Shown here: positions 37-49,223 of the stretch, in pieces
How positions within the stretch are numbered: position 1 is the first letter of the stretch
Layout: each line of letters begins with the position of its first letter
IMG/VR virus record: IMGVR_UViG_3300037508_000466
Location: 1-57,895 of that record
From: a virus
Lineage: Duplodnaviria > Caudoviricetes
Reading direction: 5' to 3' (one strand)
DNA length: 57,895 nt
Translations under genes and position numbers: made by a program
Notes under the pieces: model-generated
The model's input: the letters and a program-made list of their open reading frames with translations, nothing else
Database searches by the model: none
Told to the model about the DNA's origin: nothing

Positions 37-438
37 TCACTCTTCGTCACCTTGCAAGTAATTGTTGTACTTGGCGACCTCAGCAATGAGGACTGATTTG
101 GCTTTTTCAACGATTGATTTAGTCAGACGTTTTACATTGTATTTATCCCGTAGCTTTGACTTGCTTACAAATATGAACCCTACTTGCCCGCTATCCCAAC
201 GGCAATGAAACGGCTCTACATCAAGAGCAATGCCACTGTGTTCGTACATATACACCGGAAGGCATACGGCCAAATCATGTACTTTCTCAAAATACTTTAA
301 CATCTCACCCCACCCCGAAAATTCTTGTGATGATGGCTTGTAGTGTCCAGGCAGGTACTCCCACTTGTCGCCAATATTGTAGCGTCTATGATATAGCACC
401 ATAGAGCCAAGGTTGTCAAATTCTTCTCTTGGATTCAT
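37..438 (-). CDS. conserved phage hypothetical protein (133 aa)
   Basis: ORF with A-rich start; motif LPVYMYEHSG...WDSGQVGFI is familiar from phage early genes; start overlaps the stop of the upstream ORF. Confidence 0.75.
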   Translation of the reverse strand: MNPREEFDNLGSMVLYHRRYNIGDKWEYLPGHYKPSSQEFSGWGEMLKYFEKVHDLAVCLPVYMYEHSGIALDVEPFHCRWDSGQVGFIFVSKSKLRDKYNVKRLTKSIVEKAKSVLIAEVAKYNNYLQGDEE

Positions 439-677
439 AGTTTAGTTAGTTTATATTTTACACCATCAATTTCTACTACGCTTAGCTTTGGTCGGTTGTC
501 CTCTACATTACCATCCGAGTTCTCGAAGTAGATTTCGTTGCCTTCGGAATCGTATTCACGCTTTGACCAATACCCCTTTGAATTTTCAATGTAGATACGT
601 TTATCATTCTTGTTTCGGATTTCCAAAACCCCATTGATTTTGAAATCCCAGTTGATTTGTTGTGCGATTGTTTTCAT
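435..677 (-). CDS. hypothetical protein with Y-x-E-N-S-x-G beta-repeat (80 aa)
   Basis: Internal repeat IYIENSKG/IYFENSDG; start preceded by the 28-nt motif and an A-rich leader. Confidence 0.7.
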   Translation of the reverse strand: MKTIAQQINWDFKINGVLEIRNKNDKRIYIENSKGYWSKREYDSEGNEIYFENSDGNVEDNRPKLSVVEIDGVKYKLTKL

Positions 678-692
678 AGTTTAGTTAGTTTA

Positions 693-752
693 TATTGTTG
701 CCCCGTCGTAGGTGGTAGCGTACCCTTTGTCTTGGTGTAATGTCATTACACC
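693..752 (-). repeat. composite cis-element copy A (palindrome 735-751 + 28-nt motif 698-725)
   Basis: 693-751 matches 3801-3859 at 58 of 59 nt. Confidence 0.95.
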
Positions 753-1628
753 TTAGAATAATTTAATGTGTCGTGAGCCATTGTCAAACTCTCTGCGTAT
801 CTTTTTCATCGTATCGGATAGCCATTCCGCAGCACGTTCAGGTGTACCGAATCGAGCCTTGCTATCAGCCGCAGGCAAGTCAATCACAATCTCATCAGGC
901 GACACACGTATCCAATCACAGAACTCCTCATCATCCACAACATTACCTCTATTTTTCCCTGTCACACTGCCCCCATATGTATGGCTATACTTCTTGCCTG
1001 ATATTTTGTTAAACCCCTCGAACCAAGCAAAGCCAATGCGCCTGAAGAATGATGGATGTGTGACCGCACCAATACGCGGCACATCTACGCTTTCATTGTA
1101 ATCTTTCAACTCAATAGATTGAAGCCCCTTGCCCTCAAATACCATTTCGTTGATTATAGTGGCGGTTATCTTCGTGTCTGCCCAATCGCTAAGCACATCG
1201 CACAGCACAGCAATACACCCGCCGTGATTCAAATACTCTACATTAAAACAGCCTACCGTGTTGCACGAAAATGTAATGTGCATCTTCGGGCGACCTTGCC
1301 CTGTGCCCTCGCTTGACCACCAACACTTCATATCACCCGACAGGTATGTGGGCACATCAAGAGCGTCACCCGTGTATTTGAGCTCATCTTTAGGGCGGTC
1401 ATAGTCAATCATCCCCGCGATTATCTCTCGCTGATTGGCGATTGCCTTCGCATTGTACCCATCGTAGCACCGCTTGACCATAATATTGAAGCTCCTCGCA
1501 TCACCAAAAAAATCACCCCTCCCCAATTCGTGGCTTGACATTTCCTTATTGCCAATTTTAATAGCAGTCTGCACGAACTCCTCGAAGGTCGTGTGTATCT
1601 TAGTTAAATCACCTGTTTCGTACCTCAT
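753..1628 (-). CDS. putative VWA-like partner of MoxR ATPase (291 aa)
   Basis: Overlaps the stop of the upstream AAA+ gene; motifs DVPTYLSG and HPSFFRR; partner role inferred from MoxR/VWA gene pairing. Confidence 0.6.
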   Translation of the reverse strand: MRYETGDLTKIHTTFEEFVQTAIKIGNKEMSSHELGRGDFFGDARSFNIMVKRCYDGYNAKAIANQREIIAGMIDYDRPKDELKYTGDALDVPTYLSGDMKCWWSSEGTGQGRPKMHITFSCNTVGCFNVEYLNHGGCIAVLCDVLSDWADTKITATIINEMVFEGKGLQSIELKDYNESVDVPRIGAVTHPSFFRRIGFAWFEGFNKISGKKYSHTYGGSVTGKNRGNVVDDEEFCDWIRVSPDEIVIDLPAADSKARFGTPERAAEWLSDTMKKIRREFDNGSRHIKLF

Positions 1629-2608
1629 TTTTTAGCAAATTTTTTGTTAGAGATTTCAGCTATATCATCGACCAATCGCCTACGGACATCATCAGCCATC
1701 ATACCCGTTATCGCATAGTCGATTGCCTGAGTTGTCGAATACCCCATATCCACCAATGTGTTAGCGTGTATGCTTTGTCGTGGGCTAATTACAATATCCA
1801 TACCTAACTCTTTGGCTTTGCTACGTATCATCTGCACGATTGTAGTAATGGGTGTATCCCCCGCAACCTTGCGCTCCATAGCATTGTCAATATCCCACGG
1901 AATAGTAACGAACCTGTTGAGCGTACTCGCATCCTGTCGCTGCGCTGCCGCATACTGCTTGCTGCCCCCGCTACCCGTAGTATTCTGGCACGCCACCACA
2001 CGAAAGTCCTCGTGTTTCTTGACTAACTCATTGTTCGGGAATAAGTACGAAGCACCCGCCAACAAGTTATTCAGCGACACGACGACCTCAGTATTTGAGC
2101 GGTCAAATTCATCCAAGCATAGCAACCCGCCAAGCTTGAACGCACGATACATAGCACTCTCATTGTAGTCGCCCTTCGCATCCATATACCCACGCAAATC
2201 CGTGCTCGTCATCTTAGCGTGAAACGACACAGGGTAAAAGTCAAGCCCCAACGCACGGGCACACTGCTCGGCTGCCGTAGACTTGCCCGAACCCGCCTCG
2301 CCTACAAGCGCAACATTTATCCCCGCACCGACCATTTTGATTAAGTGCTCGAAATTCTCGTGCACAATATCCTCCGTGTGCTTAACACCCGACGGACGAA
2401 CCACGTGCACAGTGCGCTGAACGTTAGCTATTGACAGGACGGCATCCTTAAACTCACTCGAACTAACAATCTCGTCAATCGAAAGTGCATCGCCCGACAT
2501 CTCTTCAAGTATCTTAGCGAAGGACGATTGAGTGGCTTCGACGATACTTTTTTGCGTTTGCTCCGTTGCCTTAGCGACAACTTCTGCCCAATCTTGTTTT
2601 ACTCTCAT
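1625..2608 (-). CDS. MoxR/CbbQ/CobS-like AAA+ ATPase
   Basis: Walker A GEAGSGKS, Walker B LLCLDEFD, H-x-x-F-x-x-x-A-x-x-N sensor region, DASTLNRF arginine finger. Confidence 0.9.
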   Translation of the reverse strand: MRVKQDWAEVVAKATEQTQKSIVEATQSSFAKILEEMSGDALSIDEIVSSSEFKDAVLSIANVQRTVHVVRPSGVKHTEDIVHENFEHLIKMVGAGINVALVGEAGSGKSTAAEQCARALGLDFYPVSFHAKMTSTDLRGYMDAKGDYNESAMYRAFKLGGLLCLDEFDRSNTEVVVSLNNLLAGASYLFPNNELVKKHEDFRVVACQNTTGSGGSKQYAAAQRQDASTLNRFVTIPWDIDNAMERKVAGDTPITTIVQMIRSKAKELGMDIVISPRQSIHANTLVDMGYSTTQAIDYAITGMMADDVRRRLVDDIAEISNKKFAKK

Positions 2609-2626
2609 AGAATTTTATTTTATTTT

Positions 2627-2689
2627 TTGCCCCGTCGTAGGTGGTGGCATACCCTGTATTTATTTGCTCAATGTGTAATGTCATTACAC
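2627..2689 (-). repeat. composite cis-element copy B (28-nt motif 2627-2654 + palindrome 2673-2689)
   Basis: GGGTATGCCACCACCTACGACGGGGCAA on minus strand, 18 nt before ATG 2608. Confidence 0.95.
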
Positions 2690-2937
2690 CCTTTCAGATA
2701 CGCATTCTTCAAATCATCTTGGCTGAACCATTGATTAGTCCCTCCACGAAAATCTTTGTAGTCCTTAGCAGTGCGCACTAAGTACGTATCGTTCCCATCG
2801 TGCCACGATATGTAGTATATCTGCCCCGAAGGCGCGGTAAAGAACCCGCTGAAGTACATGTGCCCCTTGCTAATCTTAATCTCCGTGCACCCGCGACCTT
2901 TCAAAGTTTTTTTGATAAATGAAATGTGTTCGTTCAT
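2668..2937 (-). CDS. conserved phage hypothetical protein (89 aa)
   Basis: Motif YYISW...LVRTAKDYKDFRGGTN; coupled to the RadC stop; ends by translating the palindrome (CNDIT). Confidence 0.75.
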   Translation of the reverse strand: MNEHISFIKKTLKGRGCTEIKISKGHMYFSGFFTAPSGQIYYISWHDGNDTYLVRTAKDYKDFRGGTNQWFSQDDLKNAYLKGCNDITH

Positions 2938-3374
2938 AATAAATTGTTTTGAGTGAATGAATAATAGTCTGATTGTGTCAAAATAATGTGGTCTACAACA
3001 TTGCAGTTCATGTATTTCAATACCTCCTTCACGGCATTTGTCATATTCTTGTCCGCATCACTCGCATTGAGCGTACCCGATGGATGATTGTGCACTAATA
3101 GTACATTGGATGCAAGACTATCCACGACGTGCTTACATATTACACGTACATCTGCTACCGTTGATGATACTCCACCCTTGCCGATTAGCGCCCAATGCTT
3201 GGTCTGAAGTGCGTGGTCTAACAACACAATATAGAACGACTCAACTACGTCTATGTCATTGTCGTACAAACTACGTGCGAACTTAGCCGAAACATCAGGG
3301 CTGGTAATTTTAACGGACTTTTTTGAGCCGCCCCTAACGGGCACTGAAACAATTTTTCTTTGTGTTGTTGTCAT
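2934..3374 (-). CDS. radC: RadC-like JAB/MPN domain protein
   Basis: E...HNHPSGxxxxSxxD JAB motif and C-terminal DHIIL...YYSF. Confidence 0.9.
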   Translation of the reverse strand: MTTTQRKIVSVPVRGGSKKSVKITSPDVSAKFARSLYDNDIDVVESFYIVLLDHALQTKHWALIGKGGVSSTVADVRVICKHVVDSLASNVLLVHNHPSGTLNASDADKNMTNAVKEVLKYMNCNVVDHIILTQSDYYSFTQNNLL

Positions 3375-3574
3375 AGTTTTTGATTTGGTGTAATGTCATT
3401 ACACATGAAACAAACTGCGTTATGCGTCCATCCTCCATTGATTTTCTCACTCACAATGTGGCGCAACGCCTGAAACTTTGTGTAGTTGTAGAACCTGCGC
3501 ACCATACACGGGCGCTGCGTCGTGTCAAGCAAGTGTATGCTGAACGACCCATCTCTGTGCTTTACGTATTTCAT
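3371..3574 (-). CDS. hypothetical protein (67 aa, MKYVKHRD...)
   Basis: ATG 3574 overlaps the stop of the upstream ORF (ATGA); the longer track start at 3742 overlaps another gene. Confidence 0.55.
   Translation of the reverse strand: MKYVKHRDGSFSIHLLDTTQRPCMVRRFYNYTKFQALRHIVSEKINGGWTHNAVCFMCNDITPNQKL
3388..3404. repeat. 17-bp palindrome GTGTAATGTCATTACAC
   Basis: Exact copy, 13 nt upstream of the RadC ATG, without the 28-nt motif. Confidence 0.95.
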
Positions 3575-3789
3575 AGACAATGCACTAACGTGGTTACAAT
3601 AAGTCCAATTAAGTGCACTAACAGCACAAGGTTGCGCTGATTTTGTCCGAAATGGTCGGATGCTGAATACACGCACGCAACAGTGAGCGACGCAAACACG
3701 GATACGACAGGAGCGTATGAGGTGTCCGCTAAACACGCCCACAAGCAGGGTATAGCCGTGAGCAAAATGGTGTTGATAAGTTTTAACAT
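3571..3789 (-). CDS. small membrane protein (72 aa)
   Basis: Three hydrophobic segments; start follows the 28-nt motif and A-rich leader. Confidence 0.65.
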   Translation of the reverse strand: MLKLINTILLTAIPCLWACLADTSYAPVVSVFASLTVACVYSASDHFGQNQRNLVLLVHLIGLIVTTLVHCL

Positions 3790-3859
3790 AAGATTTTTTT
3801 TATTGTTGCCCCGTCGTAGGTGGTGGCGTACCCTTTGTCTTGGTGTAATGTCATTACAC
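3785..3859 (-). repeat. composite cis-element copy C (motif 3806-3833 + palindrome 3843-3859)
   Basis: 3785-3833 is identical to 3996-4044 (49 nt). Confidence 0.95.
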
Positions 3860-4000
3860 TACCTCGCATTCAACGTCAATAATGAATTGCTCCCGCGCTC
3901 GAAGCAATTCTTTCTCGTCTATTGTAAACTCTAAGCTAAGCGCAAGCGCCTCCTCGATTTGATTGAGCACCATAAGCTCATCGTAAATGGATTGAAACAT
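3854..4000 (-). CDS. small acidic hypothetical protein (48 aa, MFQSIYDELMVLNQIEEAL...)
   Basis: Manually translated, not in the ORF track; same leader as the 3789 gene; stop TAA lies inside the palindrome. Confidence 0.65.
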   Translation of the reverse strand: MFQSIYDELMVLNQIEEALALSLEFTIDEKELLRAREQFIIDVECEVV

Positions 4001-4016
4001 AAGATTTTTTTTATTG

Positions 4017-4044
4017 TTGCCCCGTCGTAGGTGGTGGCGTACCC
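4017..4044 (-). promoter_or_regulatory. 28-nt pseudoknot-like leader motif, copy D
   Basis: GGGTACGCCACCACCTACGACGGGGCAA, 16 nt before ATG 4000. Confidence 0.8.
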
Positions 4045-4049
4045 GTTGT

Positions 4050-4091
4050 TAAGGGCGGGGGAATCGAACCCCCGCTTGTACCATACCCTTA
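4050..4091 (-). ncRNA. minimal tRNA-like element (acceptor stem + T arm only)
   Basis: TAAGGGT-ATGGTACAAGC-GGGGG-TTCGATT-CCCCC-GCCCTTA: 7-bp stem, 5-bp T stem, canonical T loop. Confidence 0.7.
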
Positions 4092-4094
4092 GTG

Positions 4095-4111
4095 GTGTAA
4101 TGTCATTACAC
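4095..4111. repeat. 17-bp palindrome
   Basis: Exact copy; supplies the last codon and stop (GTG TAA) of the 4106-4735 gene. Confidence 0.95.
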
Positions 4112-4735
4112 CTGCTCCGACTTGTATTGAGCAATCATTACGCCTAATAAGCTGTACGCCTCCTCCAACTCCTCAATCGTGCCCTTATAGTGTTTGGTTT
4201 GATTTGAATCAACTCTGAACGCTATATTACGCTCCGCGCCCTCTTTGATTTCAGGCATCTTTGCGATAAATGTTATGATAGTCTGCGCATCGTACTTGCC
4301 CTCCGCTGCCTCCGCTGCCTCCTCTTCGGTCGCTCCATCCGCTATCGCTTCGCTGAACTTTTTGTTCCACGCTAACAGGCTCATAAGACCGCACTCTCTT
4401 TTTACGTCCTCATCAACCCACGACAAAAATTGTAGTAGTCGGGCATCGTCAATACGCCCCGCACGTATCAACAAATTGTGGTATTTGTTCACCTTTATTT
4501 GAACTTCGGTGAATCCACAATCCATCCAAAATTGTGTTTTCGTGTACTTTTTTGGATCGATATTTCCGACCTCTACACTTTGGGCATAAAAATCGTCGGC
4601 TTTAGCGCATTCCCGTGCGTGGTCGATTAGATAGGAAAACGCTTTGTTCCGCGCTTTTGCGCCCTGTATTTTAAGGGCTTGCGACGACTTACGAACGGCA
4701 ATGGTTACTTCTTTTACTGAAAATTGGGGTAACAT
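4106..4735 (-). CDS. hypothetical protein, first gene of the early unit (209 aa)
   Basis: Long ORF preceded by motif copy E and an A-rich leader. Confidence 0.8.
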   Translation of the reverse strand: MLPQFSVKEVTIAVRKSSQALKIQGAKARNKAFSYLIDHARECAKADDFYAQSVEVGNIDPKKYTKTQFWMDCGFTEVQIKVNKYHNLLIRAGRIDDARLLQFLSWVDEDVKRECGLMSLLAWNKKFSEAIADGATEEEAAEAAEGKYDAQTIITFIAKMPEIKEGAERNIAFRVDSNQTKHYKGTIEELEEAYSLLGVMIAQYKSEQV

Positions 4736-4754
4736 AAAATTGGGTTTATTTTTT

Positions 4755-4804
4755 TTGCCCCGTTACAAGTGGTGGCATACTTAGGTAGTGTAATGACATT
4801 ACAC
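4755..4804 (-). repeat. composite cis-element copy E (variant motif 4755-4782 + palindrome 4788-4804)
   Basis: AAGTATGCCACCACTTGTAACGGGGCAA, with compensatory changes relative to copies A-D. Confidence 0.9.
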
Positions 4805-4811
4805 CACTTCG

Positions 4812-4907
4812 TAAACGGGTGGGGAATCGAACCCCAAAATATTGCTTCGTGTAGGCACGTTCGTGCCGCATTCTTCCGTACACAATATTCCACACCTGCG
4901 CCCGTTC
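4812..4907 (-). ncRNA. tRNA-like RNA with D-loop remnant and branched insert replacing the anticodon loop
   Basis: Acceptor GAACGGG/CCCGTTT, T arm TGGGG-TTCGATT-CCCCA, stem AATATT/AATATT enclosing GTGTA/TACAC and GGCAC-GAAC-GTGCC. Confidence 0.7.
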
Positions 4908-5153
4908 TTTGGTTACGTTATCGTGGTTTGCGTTACGTCTCGGCATTCTCCTATTGGATAGTTTTTTCACGTTTGATCCTATGTACGTATTCGGTTTTAT
5001 ACGTTTGTATCCGTCCTTCAATTCTATCCTCAAGTGCTTGTACGTGCCCTTGCCGCATTGACCACTTTGCACACGATACCCTCCCGATTAAAGCTCCGTT
5101 TTACGCATTTCCATTCTTGCGCTTTCTGTTATTTGTGGCGTTGCCCTATACCC

Positions 5154-5170
5154 GTGTAATGTCATTACAC
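5154..5170. repeat. 17-bp palindrome
   Basis: Exact copy, extends to 19 bp. Confidence 0.95.
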
Positions 5171-5455
5171 GCCCTCCGTATTTGCCGCCTGTTACGTTTA
5201 ACTATCTAACATAGGTTAGACCGCTCCATAACATTCCACACAAGAACTTTCGTGCTTACCTCACGTGCCTGACCTTCGTTCTTCTTTCGTGCGTCTTGCT
5301 TCCAACTTTTAGGACGTGCGCACGGCGTTCGTGCGTACTGCTTGCGCTACCCCGTTCGGTATGTTCGGTACATACCCCTGTCGGTTTTTTCCATTGGTAG
5401 CCTAAAAGTCTGAGAAATGAAATTCTACCCGTTTACGCCCGTTCCCCCGCATATA

Positions 5456-5472
5456 GTGTAATGACATTACAC
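5456..5472. repeat. 17-bp palindrome
   Basis: Exact copy (central A), extends to 19 bp. Confidence 0.95.
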
Positions 5473-5578
5473 TGTATCCGTCCCCGCTCTGTATCAACTG
5501 CTTGCAAGCAAACCAAACAAATACCGCTATTTGTTTCGTCCCTCTTGTTTCGCCCGACCGTCTGTCGTTCCTGAACAA

Positions 5579-5622
5579 TGCAATTATAGTACATTGCCAT
5601 GCCCCAATGCAAGTATTTTTTT
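5579..5622 (-). promoter_or_regulatory. putative strong leftward early promoter
   Basis: Minus strand AAAAAAATAC-TTGCAT-18 nt-TATAATTGC: A-tract, -35-like box and TATAAT/TAnnnTTG hybrid. Confidence 0.55.
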
Positions 5623-5838
5623 CGTAGTACTGAAAAAAATATTAAAAAGTGAGTTTGTAGCGTTTTGAGGCGGATTAACACTGAAAAAAATATTTTTAAC
5701 ACTTGATACAAAGCAATTTAACAAAGGATAAAACACGATATAACAAAGGACGCAACAAAGGAAAAGCGCCGTAACATTAGATGAAGGAAATTAAGCCTAT
5801 ATTCGGACAATTTTGTCCGTTATTATTGCCCACTTAAT

Positions 5839-5919
5839 AGGATATTAAGACCTTTTTATCCGTTATTCCCGTGCGCCATAAGGGCAAAAAGGATATTAAG
5901 ACCTTTTTATCCGTTATTC
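5839..5919. repeat. 30-bp direct repeat AGGATATTAAGACCTTTTTATCCGTTATTC x2
   Basis: Exact copies at 5839-5868 and 5890-5919. Confidence 0.95.
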
Positions 5920-6155
5920 GTTGGTAGGTCTACAATAGTGGACAAAAAAGTCTAAATTTTGGGCAATGTTACAACATTAAGCTACCCCACCCACCCGACA
6001 AGGGGGGTGTTTGCGCACTCGGCACGGCATCGTGATTCGGGGGGATAACCCCCTCCTTCATACCATCTCATGTCCTTCCCCCCTCCGCCTGCCGGACACC
6101 CCCCTAAATATATTAGTAATATATATTACTAATATATTCATGCCCAAACACCCCA

Positions 6156-6200
6156 AAAATCGGCATAAAATCGTCATCAAAATCGTCATAAAATCGGCAT
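6156..6200. repeat. iteron-like tandem repeat AAAATCG(G/T)CAT x4
   Basis: Four adjacent copies and a further copy near 6240-6250. Confidence 0.85.
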
Positions 6201-6421
6201 GAACTAGAACTCTCTCTTCTTGCAACATAGTTGCATAAAAAAATCGTCATATCAACCCGATTTTGAACCGATTTTATGACACTTAACTCTCTGATTATGA
6301 ACAAATTCCAATTTTTTTTAAAATAATGATAAAGTTTAAAAAAAAGAGTTCTACGTATATAGAAATATGGCCAAAAAAAATCGGATTTTCGTCATGGGGT
6401 CTTTTTCCGTATCTTCGCCCT

Positions 6422-7915: not shown

Positions 7916-8178
7916 AGGCGGTAGGGCGATACGTTGTGGTGGACCCGGTGCAGGGTCGCCCACAGAGTGGTGAGTTGGTGCTCAGCGTCAAGGATGCTGA
8001 CGACATCAGGTACCGGCACGGTGATGTCATTGCTGTCGGTGATCAGTGCTCGCCGGTGCTTGCCCCCGGGCAGCTGGTGGCATACGACAAGAACGCTGGC
8101 TTCAGGCTGATTATTGAGGACCGTCAGTTGCTCGTGATAACTGATCGTGATATCTGTGCTGTCTTACGAGAGAGTTGA
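7912..8178 (+). CDS. groES: co-chaperonin GroES (Cpn10)
   Basis: G-x-V-IAVG...L-x-x-G-x-x-V-x-YDK...DI-x-AVL pattern; overlaps the groEL stop. Confidence 0.9.
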   Translation: MKAVGRYVVVDPVQGRPQSGELVLSVKDADDIRYRHGDVIAVGDQCSPVLAPGQLVAYDKNAGFRLIIEDRQLLVITDRDICAVLRES

Positions 8179-13382: not shown

Positions 13383-13813
13383 AAAAGAAATCATATAGTA
13401 CTGGAGGTAAAGTAACTCCATTTGGCCAGGCTTTCTCTGGTGCTAGAAAAGCAGGCAAAGAGACATTCACATTTGGTGGTAAGTCATATCACACTAGAAC
13501 AAAGGAGGAAGAGGATGCTAGGATAGCATCTGGTAGACCGTCATCCTACATCCCTATTGAGAAAATGCCGAGTGGTAAAATGGCGACTTCTGTGACGAGC
13601 TCTTCTGTTAATAATAAAGTGGCTACAGAGCTAAAGTCAGCTCCCGCCGCAAAAAAAGCGACTACAGAGCCAAAATCAGCCACATCAATGGACAGAAAAG
13701 CGTATAGAGAACAGGCTAAAAGCTCTGTCCCAACAAGAAAGGAAGCGAGATTTGAAAGATTCAAAGATCGTGTTGATGCAAGAATGGAAAGGAAAAGAAA
13801 AAGAAGATCGTAA
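13379..13813 (+). CDS. basic hypothetical protein
   Basis: FGQAFSGARKAGKETFTFGGKSY motif; ATG 13379 overlaps the previous stop. Confidence 0.7.
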   Translation: MKKKSYSTGGKVTPFGQAFSGARKAGKETFTFGGKSYHTRTKEEEDARIASGRPSSYIPIEKMPSGKMATSVTSSSVNNKVATELKSAPAAKKATTEPKSATSMDRKAYREQAKSSVPTRKEARFERFKDRVDARMERKRKRRS

Positions 13814-18163: not shown

Positions 18164-20585
18164 ACCAATAATCAATCCTACGTCATTTCCAAACCAATAT
18201 GTGTCCGACATTGAGAAGGGCACGAAGGAGTTTGGACTAAGGATAGGTCAGGCTATTCAGTACGAATGGTTTAGGAAAGACTCTTCTTCGGCGAGGTACT
18301 ACTCTCAGTGGAGGGACATGCACCGACTGCGTTTATACGCACGTGGAGAGCAGTCTGTACAGAAATACAAGGATGAACTCGCTGTTAACGGCGATTTGTC
18401 ATATATGAATCTTGACTGGACCCCAGTGCCAGTGCTACCTAAGTTTGTTGATATCGTGGTGAATGGGATGGGGGACAGGCTGTTCAAGGTTAAGGCGAGG
18501 GCGCAAGACTCTGCGTCTATTCAGAAGCGCCGGGACTTCCAAGAGTCGGTTGAGGTGCAGATGGCTGGTAAGGACATTTTTATGGCTGCTCAGGAGAATT
18601 TCGGTGTCAATCCATGGACTGTCAATCCTGCTGATCTTCCAGAGAATGATGATGAGTTGCAGTTGTTCATGGAGATGAACTACAAGCCTTCTGTTGAGAT
18701 TGCTCAGGAGGAGGCGCTGAATACCATACTTGAGGACAGCAGATATCAGGATGTACGCAGGAGGGTTGAGTATGACCTTATGGTTCTTGGCATCGGGATA
18801 TCGAAGCATGAGTTCAACCCTGGCGATGGGGTTAGGGTTCAGTATGTAGACCCTGCCAATGTGGTGTACAGCTATACTGAAGACCCATACTTCCGTGACT
18901 GCTTCTATTGGGGGGAAGTCAAGACTATCCCTATCTCTGAGCTTACTAAGCTGGACCCTAATCTGACTATTGAGCAGATGCAGGAGATTAGTAAGTATAG
19001 CCAGAATTGGTATGATTACTACAATGTAGCTCAGTTCTACAATAACAGCCTATTTAGGAACGACACTGCAACGCTCTTGTTCTTCAACTACAAGACTACG
19101 CACACTTTTGTGTACAAGAAGAAGACTACCGAGATGGGCGGCTCTCGTATTATTGAGAAGGACGAGAACTTCAATCCTCCTGCCGATATGATGGAGGAGC
19201 AGGGCTTTGAGCGCATCACCAAGACAATCGAGGTGTGGTATGAGGGCGTTATGGTGATGGGCACTAACATTATGTTGCGTTGGCAGTTGATGGAGAATAT
19301 GGTTCGTCCTAAGTCTGCATCTCAAAATGCTATGCCCAACTATGTGGCGTGTGCCCCTAGAATGTATAAGGGCAATATTGAGTCATTGGTACGAAGGATG
19401 ATTCCATTCGTTGACTTGATACAGCTCACTCACCTGAAGATGCAGCAGGTCATCGCTCGTGTTGTCCCTGATGGTGTCTTTATCGACGCTGATGGCATCA
19501 ATGAAGTTGACCTAGGCACAGGCGGCAAGTACACTCCGGAGGATGCGTTGAGGCTATACTTCCAAACGGGTAGTGTTGTTGGTCGTAGTTTCACGCAAGA
19601 TGGCGAGTTCAACCATGCTCGTATTCCTATCCAAGAGCTGACGACAAGTTCTGGCGGTCAGAAACTACAAGCTTTGATTGCGAACTACAATCACTACATG
19701 GACATGATTAGAGCTGTCACTGGTCTTAATGAGGCTCGTGATGCGAGTGTCCCTGATTCGAGGACGTTGGTTGGCGTTCAGAAACTCGCTGCACTTAATT
19801 CCAACACCGCTACGCGACATATTCTTGATGCATCGCTGTACATCACAAAGACGTTGTCAGAAGGACTGGCATGCCGTGTTGCTGACATCCTTGAGTACGC
19901 TCCATTCCGCGAAGAGTTCATAGGTCAGATAGGTAGGTACAATGTGACTATTCTCGATGTTCTGAAGGACTTGTATATCTATGACTTCGGTATCTTCATT
20001 GAGGTTTCTCCGGATGCTGAGGAGCGAGAGCGTATGGAGGCTAGTATACAGATGGCATTGCAGAAAGGGGATATCAACTTAGAGGATGCCATTGACATTC
20101 GTGAAATTAGAAATACGAAGCTGGCGAATCAGTTGCTGAAGATTAAGCGAAAGCAGAAGTTGGAGTCGGACCGCGCCTTCAAGATGCAGGAGCAGCAGAT
20201 GCAGGTTCAGGGGCAGATGGAAACTCAGCGCATGGCTGCGCAGTCGGCTATGCAGAAGATAGAACTTGAGGCTCAGGCTGAAATACGCATTGAGCAAGCG
20301 AAGGTTGCGTTTGCTATTGAGAAGATGAACGCTGAGGCGCAGCAGAAGGCTATGCTGATGGAAAGGGAGTTTCAGTATAACTTACAGTTAGGCAAGATGC
20401 AGAGTGATATGTTGCAACAGCGTGAAACATACAAAGAAGATGAGAAGACAAAGCGTATTGGTATACAGAATAGCCAGCAGTCTAAACTGATAGACCAGCG
20501 CAAGAACAATCTTCCACCATTGTCTTTTGAGAGTAATGAGGACAGCCTTGATGGGTTTGATTTAGCAGAATTTAGCCCTCGTTAG
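18156..20585 (+). CDS. portal protein
   Basis: 809 aa following TerL; LDWTPVPVLPKFVDIVVNG motif; coiled-coil C-terminus. Confidence 0.85.
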   Translation: MDKPIINPTSFPNQYVSDIEKGTKEFGLRIGQAIQYEWFRKDSSSARYYSQWRDMHRLRLYARGEQSVQKYKDELAVNGDLSYMNLDWTPVPVLPKFVDIVVNGMGDRLFKVKARAQDSASIQKRRDFQESVEVQMAGKDIFMAAQENFGVNPWTVNPADLPENDDELQLFMEMNYKPSVEIAQEEALNTILEDSRYQDVRRRVEYDLMVLGIGISKHEFNPGDGVRVQYVDPANVVYSYTEDPYFRDCFYWGEVKTIPISELTKLDPNLTIEQMQEISKYSQNWYDYYNVAQFYNNSLFRNDTATLLFFNYKTTHTFVYKKKTTEMGGSRIIEKDENFNPPADMMEEQGFERITKTIEVWYEGVMVMGTNIMLRWQLMENMVRPKSASQNAMPNYVACAPRMYKGNIESLVRRMIPFVDLIQLTHLKMQQVIARVVPDGVFIDADGINEVDLGTGGKYTPEDALRLYFQTGSVVGRSFTQDGEFNHARIPIQELTTSSGGQKLQALIANYNHYMDMIRAVTGLNEARDASVPDSRTLVGVQKLAALNSNTATRHILDASLYITKTLSEGLACRVADILEYAPFREEFIGQIGRYNVTILDVLKDLYIYDFGIFIEVSPDAEERERMEASIQMALQKGDINLEDAIDIREIRNTKLANQLLKIKRKQKLESDRAFKMQEQQMQVQGQMETQRMAAQSAMQKIELEAQAEIRIEQAKVAFAIEKMNAEAQQKAMLMEREFQYNLQLGKMQSDMLQQRETYKEDEKTKRIGIQNSQQSKLIDQRKNNLPPLSFESNEDSLDGFDLAEFSPR

Positions 20586-20620
20586 AAATTGTTATATATT
20601 TGCACGAAATTTAATATACT

Positions 20621-21679
20621 ATGAAAGTAAGGATATTGACTGATGAAGAGGTGAAAAACCCTTCTGTCCAAGAAAGAGAAGTAGAAGCTCAGAAGGAGCT
20701 AGAACAAAATATGGCGCCGGATCCCGCTCCTAATCCGCAGCCAGAGCAAAAACAGATTGAGGAGCATGACGTTCTTTCATTTATCAAGGAAAGGTACAAA
20801 AAGCCTATCGAAACTCTCGATGAGCTGTTTGAGGCTAGACAGCAGGAGCAGATGCCAGAGGATGTCGCTGCATTCTTCCGTTACAAGAAGGAGACAGGGC
20901 GTGGCATTGAGGACTATGTTAAGCTGAACAGGAACTATGATGAAATTGATGCGGACCAGCTACTTGCTGAGTACACATTAGCTACTGATGAGTTCATCGA
21001 GCGTGAAGATGTAGCCGACGTGTTGGCGGAGAAGTTTGGATATGATGAGGATGCGGATGACGCAGACACAATCAAGAAGAGGAAGTCCGCCAAGAAGCGT
21101 GAGGTTGCGAAGGCTAAGAAATACTTCAATGGTCTTAAGGAGCAGTATAGAGTTCCTGTTGAGTCAACTGCGAACTCGCCGATTGAGACTGAAGATTATA
21201 AACAGTACAAAGAGTACCTAGACAGAGCATCCAGTGAACAGCAGGAGGCTCAGCGTAAGAGTGAGTGGTTCAAGAAAAAGACAGAGGAGCTTTTTTCGCC
21301 TGATTTCAAAGGTTTTGATTTCAGTATTGGAGAGAAAAAGCTCACCTTCATTCCGGCTGATGCGTCTGAGGTCAAGACTCAAAACTCTTCTCCAATGAAT
21401 TTCATATCGAAGTTTTTGGATGAGCAGGGTTTGATAAAAGATCCGGCTGGTTATCACAGGTCTCTATCAATTGCGATGAACCCAGAGAAGTTCGCTAAGT
21501 TCTTTTATGAACAAGGCGCTGCTGACGCGACGCAGGATTTGGCTCAAAAGAGTAAGAATATAAATATGGACATTCGGACTTTTGGACAGCCTGTTAGTAC
21601 TGGTGGATTCAAGGTTGCTGCTGCATCTCCGTCATCGTCTAGAACGGGGGGACTTACCATAAAATCTTTTAAACCTTAA
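20621..21679 (+). CDS. putative scaffolding protein
   Basis: Acidic, helical, between portal and capsid; KFAKFFYEQG.ADA motif. Confidence 0.7.
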   Translation: MKVRILTDEEVKNPSVQEREVEAQKELEQNMAPDPAPNPQPEQKQIEEHDVLSFIKERYKKPIETLDELFEARQQEQMPEDVAAFFRYKKETGRGIEDYVKLNRNYDEIDADQLLAEYTLATDEFIEREDVADVLAEKFGYDEDADDADTIKKRKSAKKREVAKAKKYFNGLKEQYRVPVESTANSPIETEDYKQYKEYLDRASSEQQEAQRKSEWFKKKTEELFSPDFKGFDFSIGEKKLTFIPADASEVKTQNSSPMNFISKFLDEQGLIKDPAGYHRSLSIAMNPEKFAKFFYEQGAADATQDLAQKSKNINMDIRTFGQPVSTGGFKVAAASPSSSRTGGLTIKSFKP

Positions 21680-21691
21680 AAAAACTAAACC

Positions 21692-23179
21692 ATGCCAGTT
21701 AACGCATCCCCTTCATTTGCTTTACAGCCTGCTGCATATAGGCAGACTATTAATACCAATTACATTGGTAGTTCTTCTTTCAACTTTTTAAACCAATATC
21801 TGCCTGACCTCTATGAGAAGGAGTTTGAACGCTACGGCAATCGTAGTATCTCTGGCTTCATGCGTATGGTCGGTGCAGAAATGCCCTGCGCTTCTGACCT
21901 TATTAAATGGGCGGAGCAAGGCCGACTTCACACTAAGTATACCTCATGTACCTGTGCTGCTGCTGCCTCTGGAGCCACCACCCTGACCATTCCTGTGAGC
22001 AACAATAACGCTGCCTCTGGGTATCCACAAGCCAGTCAGCAGGCGCTTACTACGTCTACTACCCCTGGAACTAACTTCAACATTCGTATTGGTCAGACAT
22101 TGCTTCTTCAGAGAGAGAATGGAGCGGGTACTTTTCACGCTGTTGTTTCTGCGATTACTTACGCAAACTCTCTTGCCGCACAAACTGCAACTCTTCAGAT
22201 TTATGAGGATACCAGCACTATTGCTGGAGGCGGCCTTGACACTGGCTCCTGGACGGTGTGGGTATATGGATCTGAGTTTAAGAAGGGCACATCATCTATG
22301 GCAGAGTCATTGATGCCATATGATTTCATCTTTGAAAACAATCCAATCATTTTGAAGGATAAGTACTCTGTGACGGGTTCTGATATGACTCAGATTGGAT
22401 GGGTCGAAGTTACTGGTGAGAACGGTGTTTCGGGATACCTGTGGTATATGAAAGCTGAGCACGACTCTCGCCTTCGTTTCGACGACTACTTGGAGTCTTC
22501 TATGCTTGAGGCAATCCCTGTTGGAGCTGCAAATAGTGGTGCGCTTAGTAATGGCTTCAAAGGAACCAGTGGCGTTTTCCATGCCGTTCAAAATCGCGGC
22601 AATGTATTCAGTGGCGGATTCCCAACTAGCCTTGTTGATTTCGATGCCATCGTGCAGCGTCTTGACAAGCAGGGTGCTATTGAAGAGAACGCGTTGTTCG
22701 TGAACCGCGCTGCCTCATTCGCTATGGATGACTTCTTGGCTGCTCAGAACTCTTACGGTACCGGTGGAACATCTTACGGTCTGTTTGACAATAACGAGCA
22801 GATGGCACTGAACCTCGGATTCCGTGGATTCCGCCGTGGTTATGACTTCTACAAGACTGACTGGAAGTACCTGAATGACCCCACTATGCGTGGTCAGGGC
22901 ACTGCATCAGGAACTGTAGGTGGCGCAATCAATGGTATGCTTGTACCTGCCGGGACAACTAACGTCTATGACGAGGTCATGGGGCAGAATGCTAAGCGTC
23001 CATTCTTGCACGTTCGCTATCGTCAGACAGAGTCCGAAGATCGCAAGTTCAAGACTTGGGTTACTGGGTCTGCTGGTGGTGTTGCAACGACTGGTGATGA
23101 CGTTATGGAAGTGCATTACTTGTCTGAGCGTTGTGTGTGTACCCTTGGCGCAAACAACTTCTTCATCTTTCAATCTTAG
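21692..23179 (+). CDS. major capsid protein
   Basis: Position, size (495 aa), WAEQGRLH, VYGSEFKKG, LNLGF.GFRRG motifs; followed by a strong terminator. Confidence 0.85.
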   Translation: MPVNASPSFALQPAAYRQTINTNYIGSSSFNFLNQYLPDLYEKEFERYGNRSISGFMRMVGAEMPCASDLIKWAEQGRLHTKYTSCTCAAAASGATTLTIPVSNNNAASGYPQASQQALTTSTTPGTNFNIRIGQTLLLQRENGAGTFHAVVSAITYANSLAAQTATLQIYEDTSTIAGGGLDTGSWTVWVYGSEFKKGTSSMAESLMPYDFIFENNPIILKDKYSVTGSDMTQIGWVEVTGENGVSGYLWYMKAEHDSRLRFDDYLESSMLEAIPVGAANSGALSNGFKGTSGVFHAVQNRGNVFSGGFPTSLVDFDAIVQRLDKQGAIEENALFVNRAASFAMDDFLAAQNSYGTGGTSYGLFDNNEQMALNLGFRGFRRGYDFYKTDWKYLNDPTMRGQGTASGTVGGAINGMLVPAGTTNVYDEVMGQNAKRPFLHVRYRQTESEDRKFKTWVTGSAGGVATTGDDVMEVHYLSERCVCTLGANNFFIFQS

Positions 23180-23189
23180 TAATTAGTCA

Positions 23190-23226
23190 GAGAGGGGGTC
23201 ATTATGACTCCCTCTCATTTTTTTTT
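23190..23226 (+). terminator. intrinsic terminator
   Basis: GAGAGGGGGTCA-TTA-TGACTCCCTCTC followed by a T-run. Confidence 0.85.
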
Positions 23227-23241
23227 CTTAAAACCAATTAA

Positions 23242-23961
23242 ATGAAAACTACAGTATACAAACTCATTGGGGGAGCTGCCCCAGACAGTTTCTACCTCGC
23301 AACTAGAAACACGACAGCTAGAAGGCTATATCATTTCGATGGCAAAACAAACAGGGCGCTCCGATATGCGAGGAACCAAAAGAGCCCCTTCGAGGATGAG
23401 CAAGACGGAAACTTTATCTTAGAGCCTATTGTCTTTGAGAACGGGTTTTTAACTGTTTATGAGGACAACCCGGTGTTGCAGCACTTCCTCAGTGTACATC
23501 CTGACAATGGCAAGTTGTTTGAGGAGGTGAATCATCAGAAAGACGCCCAGGAAGAGATTGACTACTACGAGCTTGAGCATGAGGCTACCGCCCGTGTACG
23601 CAGTATGGACATCTCTACATTGGAGAGTATTGCGCGTGTGGCATTGGAGATTGATCCGTCGAAGATGACTACATCAGAACTGAAGCGTGATATGTACCGA
23701 TTCGCCAGAAACAATCCTCAAGACCTCTTGTCTATGGCTAACGACCCGCAAATTGCTCACGAGGGCTTTGTTGCTAAGTTGTTTGATGAGGGGGTTTTGT
23801 CTGCTCGTAAGAATGCTGTGCATTACAACCTCCCAACCAATAAGTCCAAGATGTTGACTGTTCCATTGGACCAGACGCATCATAGTGCTGTCAGTTCGTT
23901 CTTTTTGACTGAAGAGGGTGCTGATGCTATGAAGGTGCTGGAAAAATTCGTCTCGGTCTAA
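23242..23961 (+). CDS. conserved virion-associated hypothetical protein
   Basis: RALRYARNQKSPFEDEQ...PIVFENG motif; follows the major capsid gene. Confidence 0.7.
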   Translation: MKTTVYKLIGGAAPDSFYLATRNTTARRLYHFDGKTNRALRYARNQKSPFEDEQDGNFILEPIVFENGFLTVYEDNPVLQHFLSVHPDNGKLFEEVNHQKDAQEEIDYYELEHEATARVRSMDISTLESIARVALEIDPSKMTTSELKRDMYRFARNNPQDLLSMANDPQIAHEGFVAKLFDEGVLSARKNAVHYNLPTNKSKMLTVPLDQTHHSAVSSFFLTEEGADAMKVLEKFVSV

Positions 23962-23990
23962 ATCGTATTATATTTGCCTAAAATTTAGAT

Positions 23991-24350
23991 ATGGTTAGAT
24001 TTTTAAGAATACCCACCTCTGTTTTAAACTCAGGTGCTGCTGCCGCCACTCAAAGCAATTTATGCCCTATTTATATCAACACTTCTAACTTTGACTTGAT
24101 GTATTCAGCGGATGTTTCTGGGGCGCAAAATTTTACTGATAATCAATTAGTGGTTTCTGCTAGAGGCGGATCTTCGGCATGTGACACTATTGCGTTTGTA
24201 TTTAATTCGGCGGACGCAACGAGGGCTACTCACGCGGCTATTATAAATGCAATTGTAGCATCAAGAAGCGCATCTTCTTCTGGACCTAATAACTATTATG
24301 AGATGCCGGAACTCCCCGGCGGCAGAACGCTTACTATAAACATATCATAA
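23991..24350 (+). CDS. hypothetical protein, paralog 1 of SAD-x-T family
   Basis: Shares motifs with the three downstream ORFs. Confidence 0.7.
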   Translation: MVRFLRIPTSVLNSGAAAATQSNLCPIYINTSNFDLMYSADVSGAQNFTDNQLVVSARGGSSACDTIAFVFNSADATRATHAAIINAIVASRSASSSGPNNYYEMPELPGGRTLTINIS

Positions 24351-24351
24351 A

Positions 24352-24687
24352 ATGGCAAGATTTTTAAGAATACCTAGCGCAACGGTAACAACCGGAACTG
24401 GAGGAGCTGATAATTATATCAACGCCGATTACATTTCAGATATCAGGGCCTTGACTGATGGTGGTCAAATTAAAGTCAGGGTATTTTTTAATGTTTACAA
24501 CACTGCTGCTATTCCTGGGGATCAGTTACTAATGACGATGAGCTCTGCTGATACCACTGGATTTAGTCAAAATGTTATTATCAACAAGTTTATTGAAACT
24601 CAGTCTAATCGACTTGCCCCGACAACAGTAGTAACTTTAGACACTTCTGAAATTGGCAACAGGACAACTACTTTAACTTTTAGCTAA
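24352..24687 (+). CDS. hypothetical protein, paralog 2
   Basis: MARFLRIP...SSADTT. Confidence 0.7.
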   Translation: MARFLRIPSATVTTGTGGADNYINADYISDIRALTDGGQIKVRVFFNVYNTAAIPGDQLLMTMSSADTTGFSQNVIINKFIETQSNRLAPTTVVTLDTSEIGNRTTTLTFS

Positions 24688-24689
24688 TC

Positions 24690-25289
24690 ATGGGAAAATA
24701 TATATCATTTACACCTCTTGTTAGAGGGCCGATTATCACTCAAGCCGTAGATTATACTGGGGCAGCCCCATCTGCTGGAACAAGTTATAATGGAAGCACT
24801 GATGAAATGACGATTACAACAACAAATAGCCATAATCTTGTTGTAGGAAATCCGATTTTAGTTACTTGCGTAGGTGGAGCTGGAGGATGGACTAGTTTAA
24901 CTGGGGAGTATTTTGTTTATGCGACTCCTACTGCTACTACATTCACCATCGTGCCTAAAGCTGGAACAGGATTAACCGTTGGCACTGTTACTGTCGCATC
25001 GGCAAACAGCTCTATTGCATTGCCCACTCTTATAGATGTGGATAATATATTTAGAATGGCTAGAATTAGTGATCTTATATTAGGAATATATCTAGTGGGT
25101 ATTTATGATAGCAATAAGGTTATTAGGGTCGTATTTAATAGCGCGGATTCAACTGGTGCTACGCATAATTTTATCATGAATGAAATAGCAAAATGTAGCA
25201 ACAATGCCTATTTAAGCGGGTTGCCTATCTATGAAATTAATTCGTTGCCTGGTGGCAGAACTTGTAATTTTATTTTTACTCTCACTTAA
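24690..25289 (+). CDS. hypothetical protein, paralog 3 with inserted fibre-type beta-domain
   Basis: FNSADSTGATH...LPGGRT plus a SHNLVVGNPILV...TPTATTFT module. Confidence 0.7.
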   Translation: MGKYISFTPLVRGPIITQAVDYTGAAPSAGTSYNGSTDEMTITTTNSHNLVVGNPILVTCVGGAGGWTSLTGEYFVYATPTATTFTIVPKAGTGLTVGTVTVASANSSIALPTLIDVDNIFRMARISDLILGIYLVGIYDSNKVIRVVFNSADSTGATHNFIMNEIAKCSNNAYLSGLPIYEINSLPGGRTCNFIFTLT

Positions 25290-25309
25290 TAGTTTTTTTT
25301 TTGATAGCG

Positions 25310-25342
25310 GCCACCCTCTGATTTTTCGGGGGGTGGCTTTTT
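25310..25342 (+). terminator. intrinsic terminator
   Basis: GCCACCCTCTGA-TTTT-TCGGGGGGTGGC-TTTTT. Confidence 0.8.
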
Positions 25343-25358
25343 GTTTTATTTTTGTGTC

Positions 25359-25664
25359 GTGGCAAACTATATTTTATTCACGAATGTAACCAACAAGAGC
25401 GGGACGTCCGTACTATTGAGTATTTCTTCTAGTTTCCAGGGGTATTTTTGGCAAAAGTCAAGTACTACTCAGATGGAGTTGGTGGCAAATGCATTTTCAG
25501 TACTTAGTATAGAGTTTTCTGTTGCTGATTCTACGTATTCGTTACATAATTGGCTTATAGGAGAATTTGTAAAGGCTCTTGATTATGTAGACTCTCAAAC
25601 ATATGTGCTGCCTCAATTGCCTGTTGTCAGTGGAGTTCAGGCTTATATAAAAGACATTTTATGA
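25359..25664 (+). CDS. hypothetical protein, paralog 4
   Basis: Start revised to GTG 25359 after TATTTTTG; FSVADSTYSLH...LPQLP. Confidence 0.6.
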   Translation: MANYILFTNVTNKSGTSVLLSISSSFQGYFWQKSSTTQMELVANAFSVLSIEFSVADSTYSLHNWLIGEFVKALDYVDSQTYVLPQLPVVSGVQAYIKDIL

Positions 25665-48280: not shown

Positions 48281-48296
48281 TGTAATGTCATTACAC
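48280..48296. repeat. 17-bp palindrome at the convergence point of the two transcription blocks
   Basis: Exact GTGTAATGTCATTACAC starting at the last base of the giant ORF stop. Confidence 0.95.
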
Positions 48297-48409: not shown

Positions 48410-48544
48410 TAGTCAGGACAGGATTCGAACCTGTGGTGCAAGTTATTAGGTGAAGTAATACTCTTCATTCATCAGACTGAGCTGAACCTCTCATTACCTT
48501 GCCGACTTGTAGTAGTTGCGTCTAACCAATTCCGCCACCTGACT
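48410..48544 (-). ncRNA. tRNA-like RNA (Leu/Ser-type D arm) with 83-nt structured insert
   Basis: AGTCAGG/CCTGACT acceptor, TGGCGGAATTGGTTAGACGC D region, ACAGG-TTCGAAT-CCTGT T arm. Confidence 0.75.
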
Positions 48545-48884: not shown

Positions 48885-49223
48885 TTAATTTACTATAATG
48901 TTCCAGTCTTCCGCAAGCATATCTGTCTGAGATGCCAGCCAACCGGTTAGAATTTTTCTGTCAGCAGTAAACATTCTGATACTGCCAAGCGCCTCAAATG
49001 TTTCTCCGCCTACCTGCTCTTCAATAACCTGGCGAAGTGCGGGGTCATGAATGGCTTTTGTTGGGACAGTCCCTGCTGGAAGTAAAAACAAAAACATATT
49101 CTTGCCATTCCAGCCACTGCGTGCAACACGGTGTCCTTGTTTGAGTGCCTCAAGGGCCTCACCAAATGTGCCTCTTCCGACGTGAAGTAGGCCAAAAGGT
49201 CCGGGTGATGTTAATTGTTCCAT
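48885..49223 (-). CDS. tad2: DUF2829 / Tad2-family anti-Thoeris sponge protein
   Basis: FGEALEALKQGHRVARSGWNGK...WLASQTDMLAEDW signature. Confidence 0.85.
   Translation of the reverse strand: MEQLTSPGPFGLLHVGRGTFGEALEALKQGHRVARSGWNGKNMFLFLLPAGTVPTKAIHDPALRQVIEEQVGGETFEALGSIRMFTADRKILTGWLASQTDMLAEDWNIIVN

Follow-up and report, generated by a model that had tools for sequence, protein, structure and literature searches.

The early region of a 57,895-bp virus record (IMG/VR IMGVR_UViG_3300037508_000466, analysed over its full length and hereafter referred to as the window) contains five copies of a 28-nt motif, dispersed rather than arranged in tandem, each lying shortly before the start codon of a gene. 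With a little more confidence than doubt, the motif is interpreted here as a cis-acting RNA element in polycistronic early mRNA, most likely in the form of a compact H-type pseudoknot. Stem 1 of this structure is reasonably supported, stem 2 is plausible, and the chances for the full pseudoknot are about even. On the sequence evidence assembled below, the motif is judged to be a real, unlisted and phage-only cis-RNA candidate, which would act at the RNA level with both of its stems forming together.

The original prediction listed five copies on the minus strand, spaced 16-20 nt from an ATG, and both claims were borne out, the copies by reading the sequence and the spacing by count (Table 1; all coordinates follow window numbering and the copies are read on the minus strand). 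The substitutions are also as it described: GGGU/ACCU is replaced by AAGU/ACUU in the fifth copy and C9 by U in the copy at 698-725, the remainder falling at positions 6 and 17-19. A consensus search allowing at most one mismatch returned four window copies and no match across 100 dinucleotide shuffles, and the exact string ACGGGGCAA, common to all five copies, occurs five times in the window against 0.36 expected, always on the minus strand. A covariance model built from nine variants and run with filters off recovered exactly the five copies, at 38.9-48 bits; the next match (19.9 bits, 8060-8087, minus strand) was judged to be chance because it lies antisense within a coding sequence for a Cpn10/GroES-like protein. 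A coding function of the motif itself was rejected, since the motif-to-ATG distance (44-48 nt, or 16-20 nt from the motif end) keeps no constant frame. Upstream of every window copy stands a 17-nt palindrome, GTGTAATGACATTACAC, which occurs nine times in the window against 0.02 expected, with its central base flipped in two of the nine. A sixth motif copy lies beyond the window's end in the strain contig G004 (L185:1370-1400), with such a hairpin 4 nt upstream and an ATG 21 nt downstream, and carries three 1-nt insertions, one in loop 1 and two in stem 2.

Pattern scans recovered the motif in strain variants (G004 and 19 of 21 metagenome loci; the remaining pair hold an unrelated GC-rich sequence that is also present in two Woeseiaceae metagenome-assembled genomes (MAGs)) and in five other contexts, namely G001, G002, L045, L046 and L052/L048, always in sense orientation. 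In the first four of these contexts it stands 10-19 nt before an ATG. The G001 copy (CGGTACGCC...CCGACGACGGGGCAA) follows a TTG-N20-TATTTTTG box by ~25 nt and is itself followed by AAGGAG and ATG; in G002 the motif begins 6 nt past a stop codon and is again followed by AAGGAG and ATG, whereas in L045 the ATG comes 16 nt after the motif and in L046 AGGAG comes 1 nt after it. The motif is thus orientation-specific and leader-located, as had been proposed, being in sense in all contexts and, in most, immediately ahead of a start codon. These occurrences do not follow from shared gene content: neither G001 nor G002 has a protein in common with the window phage at a blastp E<=1e-4, the ~3-kb flanks of L045 and L046 gave no protein match to the window phage at E<=1e-3, and one marginal 30-residue alignment in the L052 flank (E 6e-4) was discounted. 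The genes downstream of the motif have no common function either, and include an ATPase, tiny open reading frames (ORFs), a membrane peptide and a scaffold-like protein. Use of Shine-Dalgarno (SD) sequences seems likely in G001 and G002, as SD-like tetramers precede 14 of 57 and 15 of 50 of their long ORFs, respectively, compared with 4 of 54 in the window.

The motif did not turn up in 185,579 species genomes scanned with two patterns, which gave 2 and 73 matches that were of coding type or lacked the flanking features; the 73 matches to stem 2 plus loop came mostly from high-GC lineages and are read as coding-type chance, their frames being unchecked. Nor was it found among 151 sampled Bacteroidota genomes, where one 26.4-bit match lies inside an unrelated G/C-rich repeat, or among 50,697 GenBank phage records, in which all matches were partial and attributed to chance. 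The genomes behind L129/L173 (a Hymenobacter genome and a Prevotella MAG) produced three covariance matches of 25.1-25.8 bits, one of them full-length (25.3 bits, G006:C221); copies in these two genomes were rejected, the two partial matches (one in Hymenobacter) falling on sites already judged to be chance. Searches anchored on proteins (the ATPase and the GroEL-like protein) returned only the strain contig G004 and two distant contigs, both lacking the motif. The novelty that had been claimed for the motif held in cmscan searches against Rfam 15, in which no copy matched a family at gathering thresholds, none did at E<=10 over window positions 400-6300, and no overlapping match was obtained at E<=1 at the six other motif-bearing loci. 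The motif and palindrome strings were not found in literature text, where a single match was unrelated; they are also absent from six supplementary files of a catalogue of 10,006 candidate viral RNAs (PMC10690425), three further files of which were unsearched and may list the motif.

The proposed structure was assessed on 12 distinct variants. Stem 1 pairs positions 1-4 with 13-16, and stem 2 pairs positions 7-9 and 11-12 with 22-26, A10 being bulged, which leaves a loop 1 of 2 nt and a loop 3 of 5 nt; by the usual rules, loops of this size raise no steric objection to an H-type pseudoknot with stems of 5 and 4 bp. Under this model 105 of the 108 stem cells pair (97.2%), as against 30-69% with slid partners, and only 4 of 500 column shuffles reached 97.2%. 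In stem 1, pair 1-16 is G.U in five variants, A-U in four, C-G in two and A.A in one, and pair 2-15 is G-C in ten and A-U in two, the two other pairs being invariant. The complementary changes G1 -> C and U16 -> G are essentially all that separates the G001 and G002 copies from the consensus, and this C1-G16 double change is clean precisely because almost nothing else differs. With regard to stem 2, RNAalifold predicts it unaided, a two-step fold yields stem 2 and then stem 1 in five of six variants, and the extra C after C9 and extra A after G23 of the sixth copy stand opposite each other at the stem-2 bulge, an arrangement that fits a helix. The unpaired A5, A10, A20, C21, A27 and A28 are invariant, and the initiation region that follows the motif is predicted to be open. 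A scan of viral contigs in which all stem-2 positions were left free gave no covarying version among 41 loci; all five stem-2 pairs were present only in known loci (G004, G001 and G002) and in the A/U-rich L101, which was rejected as a homolog and attributed to chance, being apparently coding sequence. Three independent changes of GGGG to GGAG or GGAGG, ~20-24 nt before an ATG, were noted separately (L049:1565-1592, L038:759-786 and L185:1370-1400); GGAG/GGAGG is the SD core and the CCACC of the motif resembles the anti-SD CCUCC, which may be coincidence or may hint at pairing of the G-run with a U-containing partner.

An action on RNA is favoured by the finding of the motif strictly in sense in all six unrelated contexts, by the leader or intercistronic position and by pairing-preserving changes that make use of G.U, as well as by the lack of a shared phage protein or host copy to read a DNA site and by the layouts of G001 and L052. 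Searches of 59 ORFs against PHROGs and of 24 against Pfam, two overlapping sets of which the second comprises 23 ORFs of the window and one from L185, the G004 extension, revealed neither a phage RNA polymerase nor a sigma factor, although an undetectable polymerase may exist, and host Bacteroidota sigma-A boxes (-33 TTG / -7 TAnnTTTG) occur at eight window sites, none of them in the motif-bearing gaps; the cistrons are therefore apparently read through from upstream. The sole promoter-like site ahead of the early block is a candidate of the form TTG-N21-TATAATTG, and the block looks like one host-transcribed polycistronic unit in which the motif would lie within the RNA. Metatranscriptome contigs from four runs of two studies cover parts of the early block: two RNA-library contigs, at 579-877 and 4006-4404, each run from one gene through hairpin and motif into the next, and 4934-5428 is covered by contigs from two runs. 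Apparent RNA ends inside the motif (X17 contigs ending at 2647 and 3823, an X18 contig starting at 3830) were attributed to assembly breaks at the repeats.

Since the motif is near-invariant in phages without common proteins and was not found in cellular genomes, it probably acts through a conserved host component. In the proposed mechanism, the motif would be transcribed in early mRNA directly 5' of the unstructured, A-rich initiation region of individual cistrons, where, in the preferred version, the 30S subunit or ribosomal protein S1 would dock at about -17 to -45 as at a standby or enhancer site, a structure at -17 to -45 being expected to sit where the 30S platform and S1 meet mRNA. The motif may also serve, after processing of the long transcript, as a structured 5' cap against exonucleases. 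Because it precedes true SDs in other phages and, in one case, a terminator-like hairpin, the motif looks like an autonomous module rather than an SD substitute.

Several observations weigh against this interpretation, in its structural part first. Stem 2 shows no covariation, four of its five pairs being invariant among the 12 variants, and of the covariation expected in a larger alignment only two double-sided changes in stem 1 materialised; the H-type pseudoknot as originally predicted accordingly keeps the independent G.U to C-G change of stem 1 in two unrelated contigs and the RNAalifold prediction of stem 2, but not covariation in the latter. Pair 9-24 is C-G in seven variants, U.G, the anticipated wobble, in three, and C.A in two, these mismatches coming from strain variants with G24 -> A. 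In stem 1, the A2-U15 double change is confounded with descent, since it occurs in one lineage together with three other (loop) substitutions, and L046 has A.A at pair 1-16. The sixth copy can form an alternative hairpin, CCUUC/GGAGG; variant c (U9) has a different minimum-free-energy fold; the two-step energy of the consensus, -8.7 kcal/mol, is equalled by 18.6% of 1000 dinucleotide shuffles; and 12 distinct sequences are too few for an R-scape-type test. As to function, the host component invoked in the mechanism is putative. The argument that a translational role follows from a phylum without SD-dependent initiation is weakened, as three other contexts (G001, G002 and L046) place AAGGAG or AGGAG at SD distance right after the motif. 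In L052/L048 the motif starts 4 nt past a stop codon and is followed, 15 nt on, by a GCCGGGG-N9-CCCCGGC hairpin and a U-run, a terminator-like arrangement at odds with a pure initiation enhancer; a function as enhancer, protein-binding element or stabiliser, as first suggested, can be proposed but not asserted. Support from the RNA-library contigs is weak, because strand and transcript ends cannot be read from contigs and carried-over DNA may be among them.

Some of these points would be accommodated by an RNA element that is not a pseudoknot, in which the stem-1 hairpin (GGGU-N8-ACCU) or the stem-2 hairpin forms alone and a host RNA-binding factor or nuclease recognises the remainder, with its invariant ACGGGGCAA, in single-stranded form; both parts of this proposal are held to be unlikely. 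The confinement of all covariation to stem 1, with stem 2 invariant or mismatched, the invariant unpaired positions listed above, which suit sequence-specific recognition, and the tolerance of G24 -> A and of GGAGG in the sixth copy are as a single hairpin would predict, yet RNAalifold and the minimum-free-energy fold pick stem 2 first, the insertions of the sixth copy are opposed in stem 2, and C9 -> U retains a G.U pair in 3 of the 12 variants.

A signal at the DNA level is unlikely. It could be an operator, an ops-like element of the non-template strand or a promoter read by an unrecognised polymerase or factor, and with the palindrome as terminator it would make up terminator-promoter cassettes between early genes. 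The order palindrome, motif, short leader and gene does recur five times in the window and once in G004, the palindrome follows a tRNA at convergent junctions (window 48280 and G003), where a terminator is expected, and the motif resembles phage-specific promoters, of which near-invariant 28-bp blocks are typical. A promoter of T7 or N4 type, however, would call for a phage RNA polymerase or sigma factor, neither of which was detected, and the motif-carrying phages have no common protein to read the site. The G001 copy, ~25 nt downstream of the TTG-N20-TATTTTTG box, would fall within the transcript, the L052 copy has a terminator-like hairpin 15 nt after it, and complementary double changes that include G.U are unexpected for a duplex-DNA site; moreover, RNA-library contigs run through the motif, which was not found in host genomes. 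Of more specific promoter types, a sigma-54 or ECF-type promoter was rejected as boxes and spacing misfit by eye, and a crAss-/N4-type virion-polymerase promoter as the large terminase (TerL) is not crAss-like and no polymerase was found. For phage phi14:2, early transcripts are reported to share no upstream motif, as far as the account in 10.1101/2020.03.07.982082 goes.

It is doubtful that the motif is a minimal (28-31 nt), natural and phage-only pseudoknot aptamer for a universal host component or small molecule such as the 30S platform, S1 or a nucleotide signal; phages of both SD-less and SD-using hosts would then place it before genes as a means of capturing ribosomes or sensing the state of the cell. 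A riboswitch-like switch responding to a ligand or factor, in which stem 2 sequesters the G-run and the expression platform varies by phage, is improbable. The near-invariant core would be consistent with it, as would the three platforms observed (an A-rich leader, an SD 1-9 nt downstream, and the L052 hairpin with its U-run), the CCCCGG arm of the L052 hairpin, which could alternatively pair with the CGGGG of the motif, and a size and topology akin to those of the smallest pseudoknot aptamers. The downstream genes are functionally unlike, though, no Rfam aptamer matches, the terminator-type case is single and the alternative structure shows no covariation.

Strain variants differ by whole early-gene modules at the hairpin-motif cassettes, which thus mark mosaic boundaries. 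Contig L054 (Ga0129336_10025557) is without window positions 753-2614, which hold the ATPase and DUF7192 genes, and its deletion junction falls within a 77-nt overlap made up of hairpin and motif, while L044, L047, L042 and L043 join the cassette to differing neighbours. Both observations, together with the C/T states of positions 6 and 9, whose four possible combinations are all represented among the copies and strains, a pattern expected from gene conversion, could be taken to mean that the cassettes are repeats kept mainly by recombination, short homologies that shuffle early modules and have no RNA function, but this is very improbable, since it cannot explain single sense copies in five unrelated contexts, mostly 5' of a start codon, and leaves the compensatory changes unexplained. 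A mimic of a CRISPR repeat or of an antitoxin RNA was rejected, no array having been found in host genomes (pattern scans of 185,579 species, with coding-type chance matches only) and the phage copies being dispersed.

Among known systems, the motif would be functionally closest to the leader pseudoknots of tisB and T4 gene 32, and it lies outside every tested family. The E. coli tisB +42 mRNA is described as carrying an S1-dependent 5' pseudoknot standby site (PMC7708055). By that account, tisB resembles the proposed form of the motif in having a small pseudoknot in the leader beside a single-stranded region, proposed to aid binding of 30S and S1, and differs in that its ribosome-binding site is sequestered ~100 nt away and that it is chromosomal and single-copy; the motif, by contrast, is a repeated, phage-only element without sequence likeness to tisB, and the initiation region, predicted to be open, follows it at 16-21 nt. 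The T4 gene 32 leader pseudoknot, likewise said to be missing from Rfam in the catalogue cited above (PMC10690425), is also phage-encoded, directly 5' of the gene and followed by an unstructured A/U-rich leader. The T4 element nevertheless controls one gene through its own single-stranded-DNA-binding product, whereas the motif precedes six different, unrelated genes and no gene for such a protein follows. The preQ1-I riboswitch, at ~34 nt the smallest known H-type pseudoknot aptamer, shares with the proposed fold of the motif a short stem 1 and a loop that pairs with the 3' tail just before the ribosome-binding site. Unlike preQ1-I, the motif has no A-rich loop 3 and no Rfam preQ1 match (at E<=10 over window positions 400-6300 and at E<=1 over the six loci), and no queuosine or preQ1 genes were identified by Pfam and PHROGs among the ORFs downstream of it. 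In T4-type phages, promoter-early stem-loop (PeSL) cassettes occur, which similarly combine a repeated stem-loop and a conserved block between early genes at mosaic junctions; in the present case the conserved block cannot be recognised as a host promoter and, unlike PeSL, has pairing-preserving changes.

Ribosomes of Bacteroidota have been reported to ignore SD sequences (PMC6847099, PMC7797042, PMC9976891), and those of Bacteroidia to depend on open, A-rich leaders (PMC6847099, PMC7797042). Little is known of how the mRNAs of Bacteroidota phages are translated on such ribosomes, and the retention of the motif, nearly letter for letter, in phages without common genes points to a handle on a conserved host machine. 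Should it recruit ribosomes or stabilise mRNA, it would provide a compact expression part for Bacteroidota, and a response to a ligand, if there is one, would make it the smallest known element of riboswitch-like type; otherwise, it would serve as a clean marker of early-gene cassettes and module shuffling in this freshwater phage group.

Table 1. Copies of the motif and associated elements in the window.
Feature	Position	Strand	Context	Score (bits)
Motif copy GGGTACGCTACCACCTACGACGGGGCAA	698..725	-	20 nt before ATG of 80-aa ORF (435-677)	46.2
Motif copy GGGTATGCC...	2627..2654	-	18 nt before ATG of AAA_5/CbbQ-like ATPase gene (1625-2608)	48
Motif copy, consensus	3806..3833	-	16 nt before ATG of 72-aa ORF (3571-3789)	47.4
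Motif copy, consensus	4017..4044	-	16 nt before ATG of 48-aa ORF (3854-4000)	47.4
Motif copy, diverged, AAGTATGCCACCACTTGTAACGGGGCAA	4755..4782	-	19 nt before ATG of first early ORF (4106-4735, 209 aa)	38.9
Palindrome GTGTAATGACATTACAC	735..751	-	9 nt upstream of motif 698-725	
Palindrome	2673..2689	-	18 nt upstream of motif 2627-2654	
Palindrome	3843..3859	-	9 nt upstream of motif 3806-3833; contains stop codon of 48-aa ORF	
Palindrome	4095..4111	-	50 nt upstream of motif 4017-4044; contains stop codon of 209-aa ORF	
Palindrome, minus-strand central base T	4788..4804	-	5 nt upstream of motif 4755-4782	
Palindrome without motif	3388..3404	-	13-nt A-rich leader directly to ATG of RadC-like gene	
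Further palindromes	5154-5170, 5456-5472, 48280-48296			
tRNA-like minihelix, acceptor-type stem AAGGG/CCCTT and T-arm GGGGGTTCGATTCCCCC	4050..4091	-	Between hairpin and motif 4017-4044	
Candidate host-type early promoter TTG-N21-TATAATTG	5581..5612	-	Read by eye; putative	

Eight of the nine palindromes stand at gene ends in the early region, and the ninth follows a tRNA-like gene at a convergent junction (Table 1). That the hairpin at 3388-3404 stands without a motif indicates that hairpin and motif are separable. The palindrome hairpins in the window have no U-tract, and none was called by a terminator scan; they may act in 3'-end formation or termination, as operators, or as sites of processing. 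Outside the window, the palindrome was seen in three copies in the G004 extension and in one copy in G003, after a tRNA. The close relative MW202828.1 is without the motif and has a palindrome of its own, GTGTCGTTAACGACAC, in at least 14 copies with leaders directly after them, and the early region of Flavobacterium phage elemoE (NC_055854.1) has neither palindrome nor motif. Downstream of the candidate promoter, ~850 nt of the minus strand (~4740-5580) lack a long ORF and contain three palindromes; this leader also holds degenerate motif-like pieces, GGGTATAGGGCAAC after the hairpin at 5154 and GGGGTATGTACCGAACATACCGAACGGGG near 5340-5375.

The T-arm of the minihelix at 4050-4091 is perfect and matches the tmRNA model at 18.5 bits, below the family threshold. 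A second tRNA-like piece at ~4823-4906 (minus strand) has an AACGGG/CCCGTT stem and a T-arm and no normal anticodon arm; neither element was called by ARAGORN, and both may be processing signals or decoys. Similar pieces are present in L031 (G001) and in L009 at ~13760-13810 (MW202828.1). At 48410-48544 (minus strand), an Rfam tRNA match of 35.5 bits over 135 nt includes a ~60-nt insertion between the D and T arms; it was not called by ARAGORN either and may represent an intron-bearing or long-arm tRNA.

The window is the whole IMG/VR record, linear and with a CheckV completeness of 95%, and probably belongs to a podovirus-like freshwater group that infects Bacteroidota. TerL matched 87 GenBank phage records (including 68 of Flavobacterium, 15 of Cellulophaga, 2 of Tenacibaculum and 1 of Maribacter), the nearest being the uncultured MW202828.1 at 69% identity. 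An SD-like tetramer lies upstream of 5 of 57 window genes and A makes up 45% of the 20 nt preceding start codons, which would fit a Bacteroidota host. Small, early-type genes occupy the minus strand at 37-4735; genes for GroEL/GroES-like, structural and packaging proteins and a 3975-aa ORF occupy the plus strand at 6326-48280; and replication, lysis, MazG-like and Tad2-like genes lie on the minus strand at 48.5-57.9 kb. G004 is 99.9% identical to the window over 870 nt and extends 7.4 kb beyond window position 1, so that the record is cut and the genome is larger than the CheckV value suggests; this extension (L185, G004 19300-27641) does not match the window's other end and holds further early/middle genes in addition to the sixth motif copy and three palindromes.

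The 3975-aa ORF (36353-48280, plus strand) has weak matches only (ART-PolyVal, 21.5 bits, and phrog_3170) and resembles a giant polyvalent virion-type protein, its counterpart in MW202828.1 being 3859 aa long. The gene at 48885-49223 (minus strand) encodes a protein with a Tad2-like (anti-Thoeris) domain (Pfam PF11195, E 4e-23). Where the early block and the GroEL-like gene diverge, the intervening DNA contains direct repeats (5793-5919 and 6156-6212), consisting of three ~33-nt copies of AATAGGATATTAAGACCTTTTTATCCGTTATTC and three units of the AAAATCGGCATAAAATCGTCATC type; MW202828.1 carries repeats of the AATCGACATAA type at the equivalent position, and these are likely to be regulatory or origin sites.

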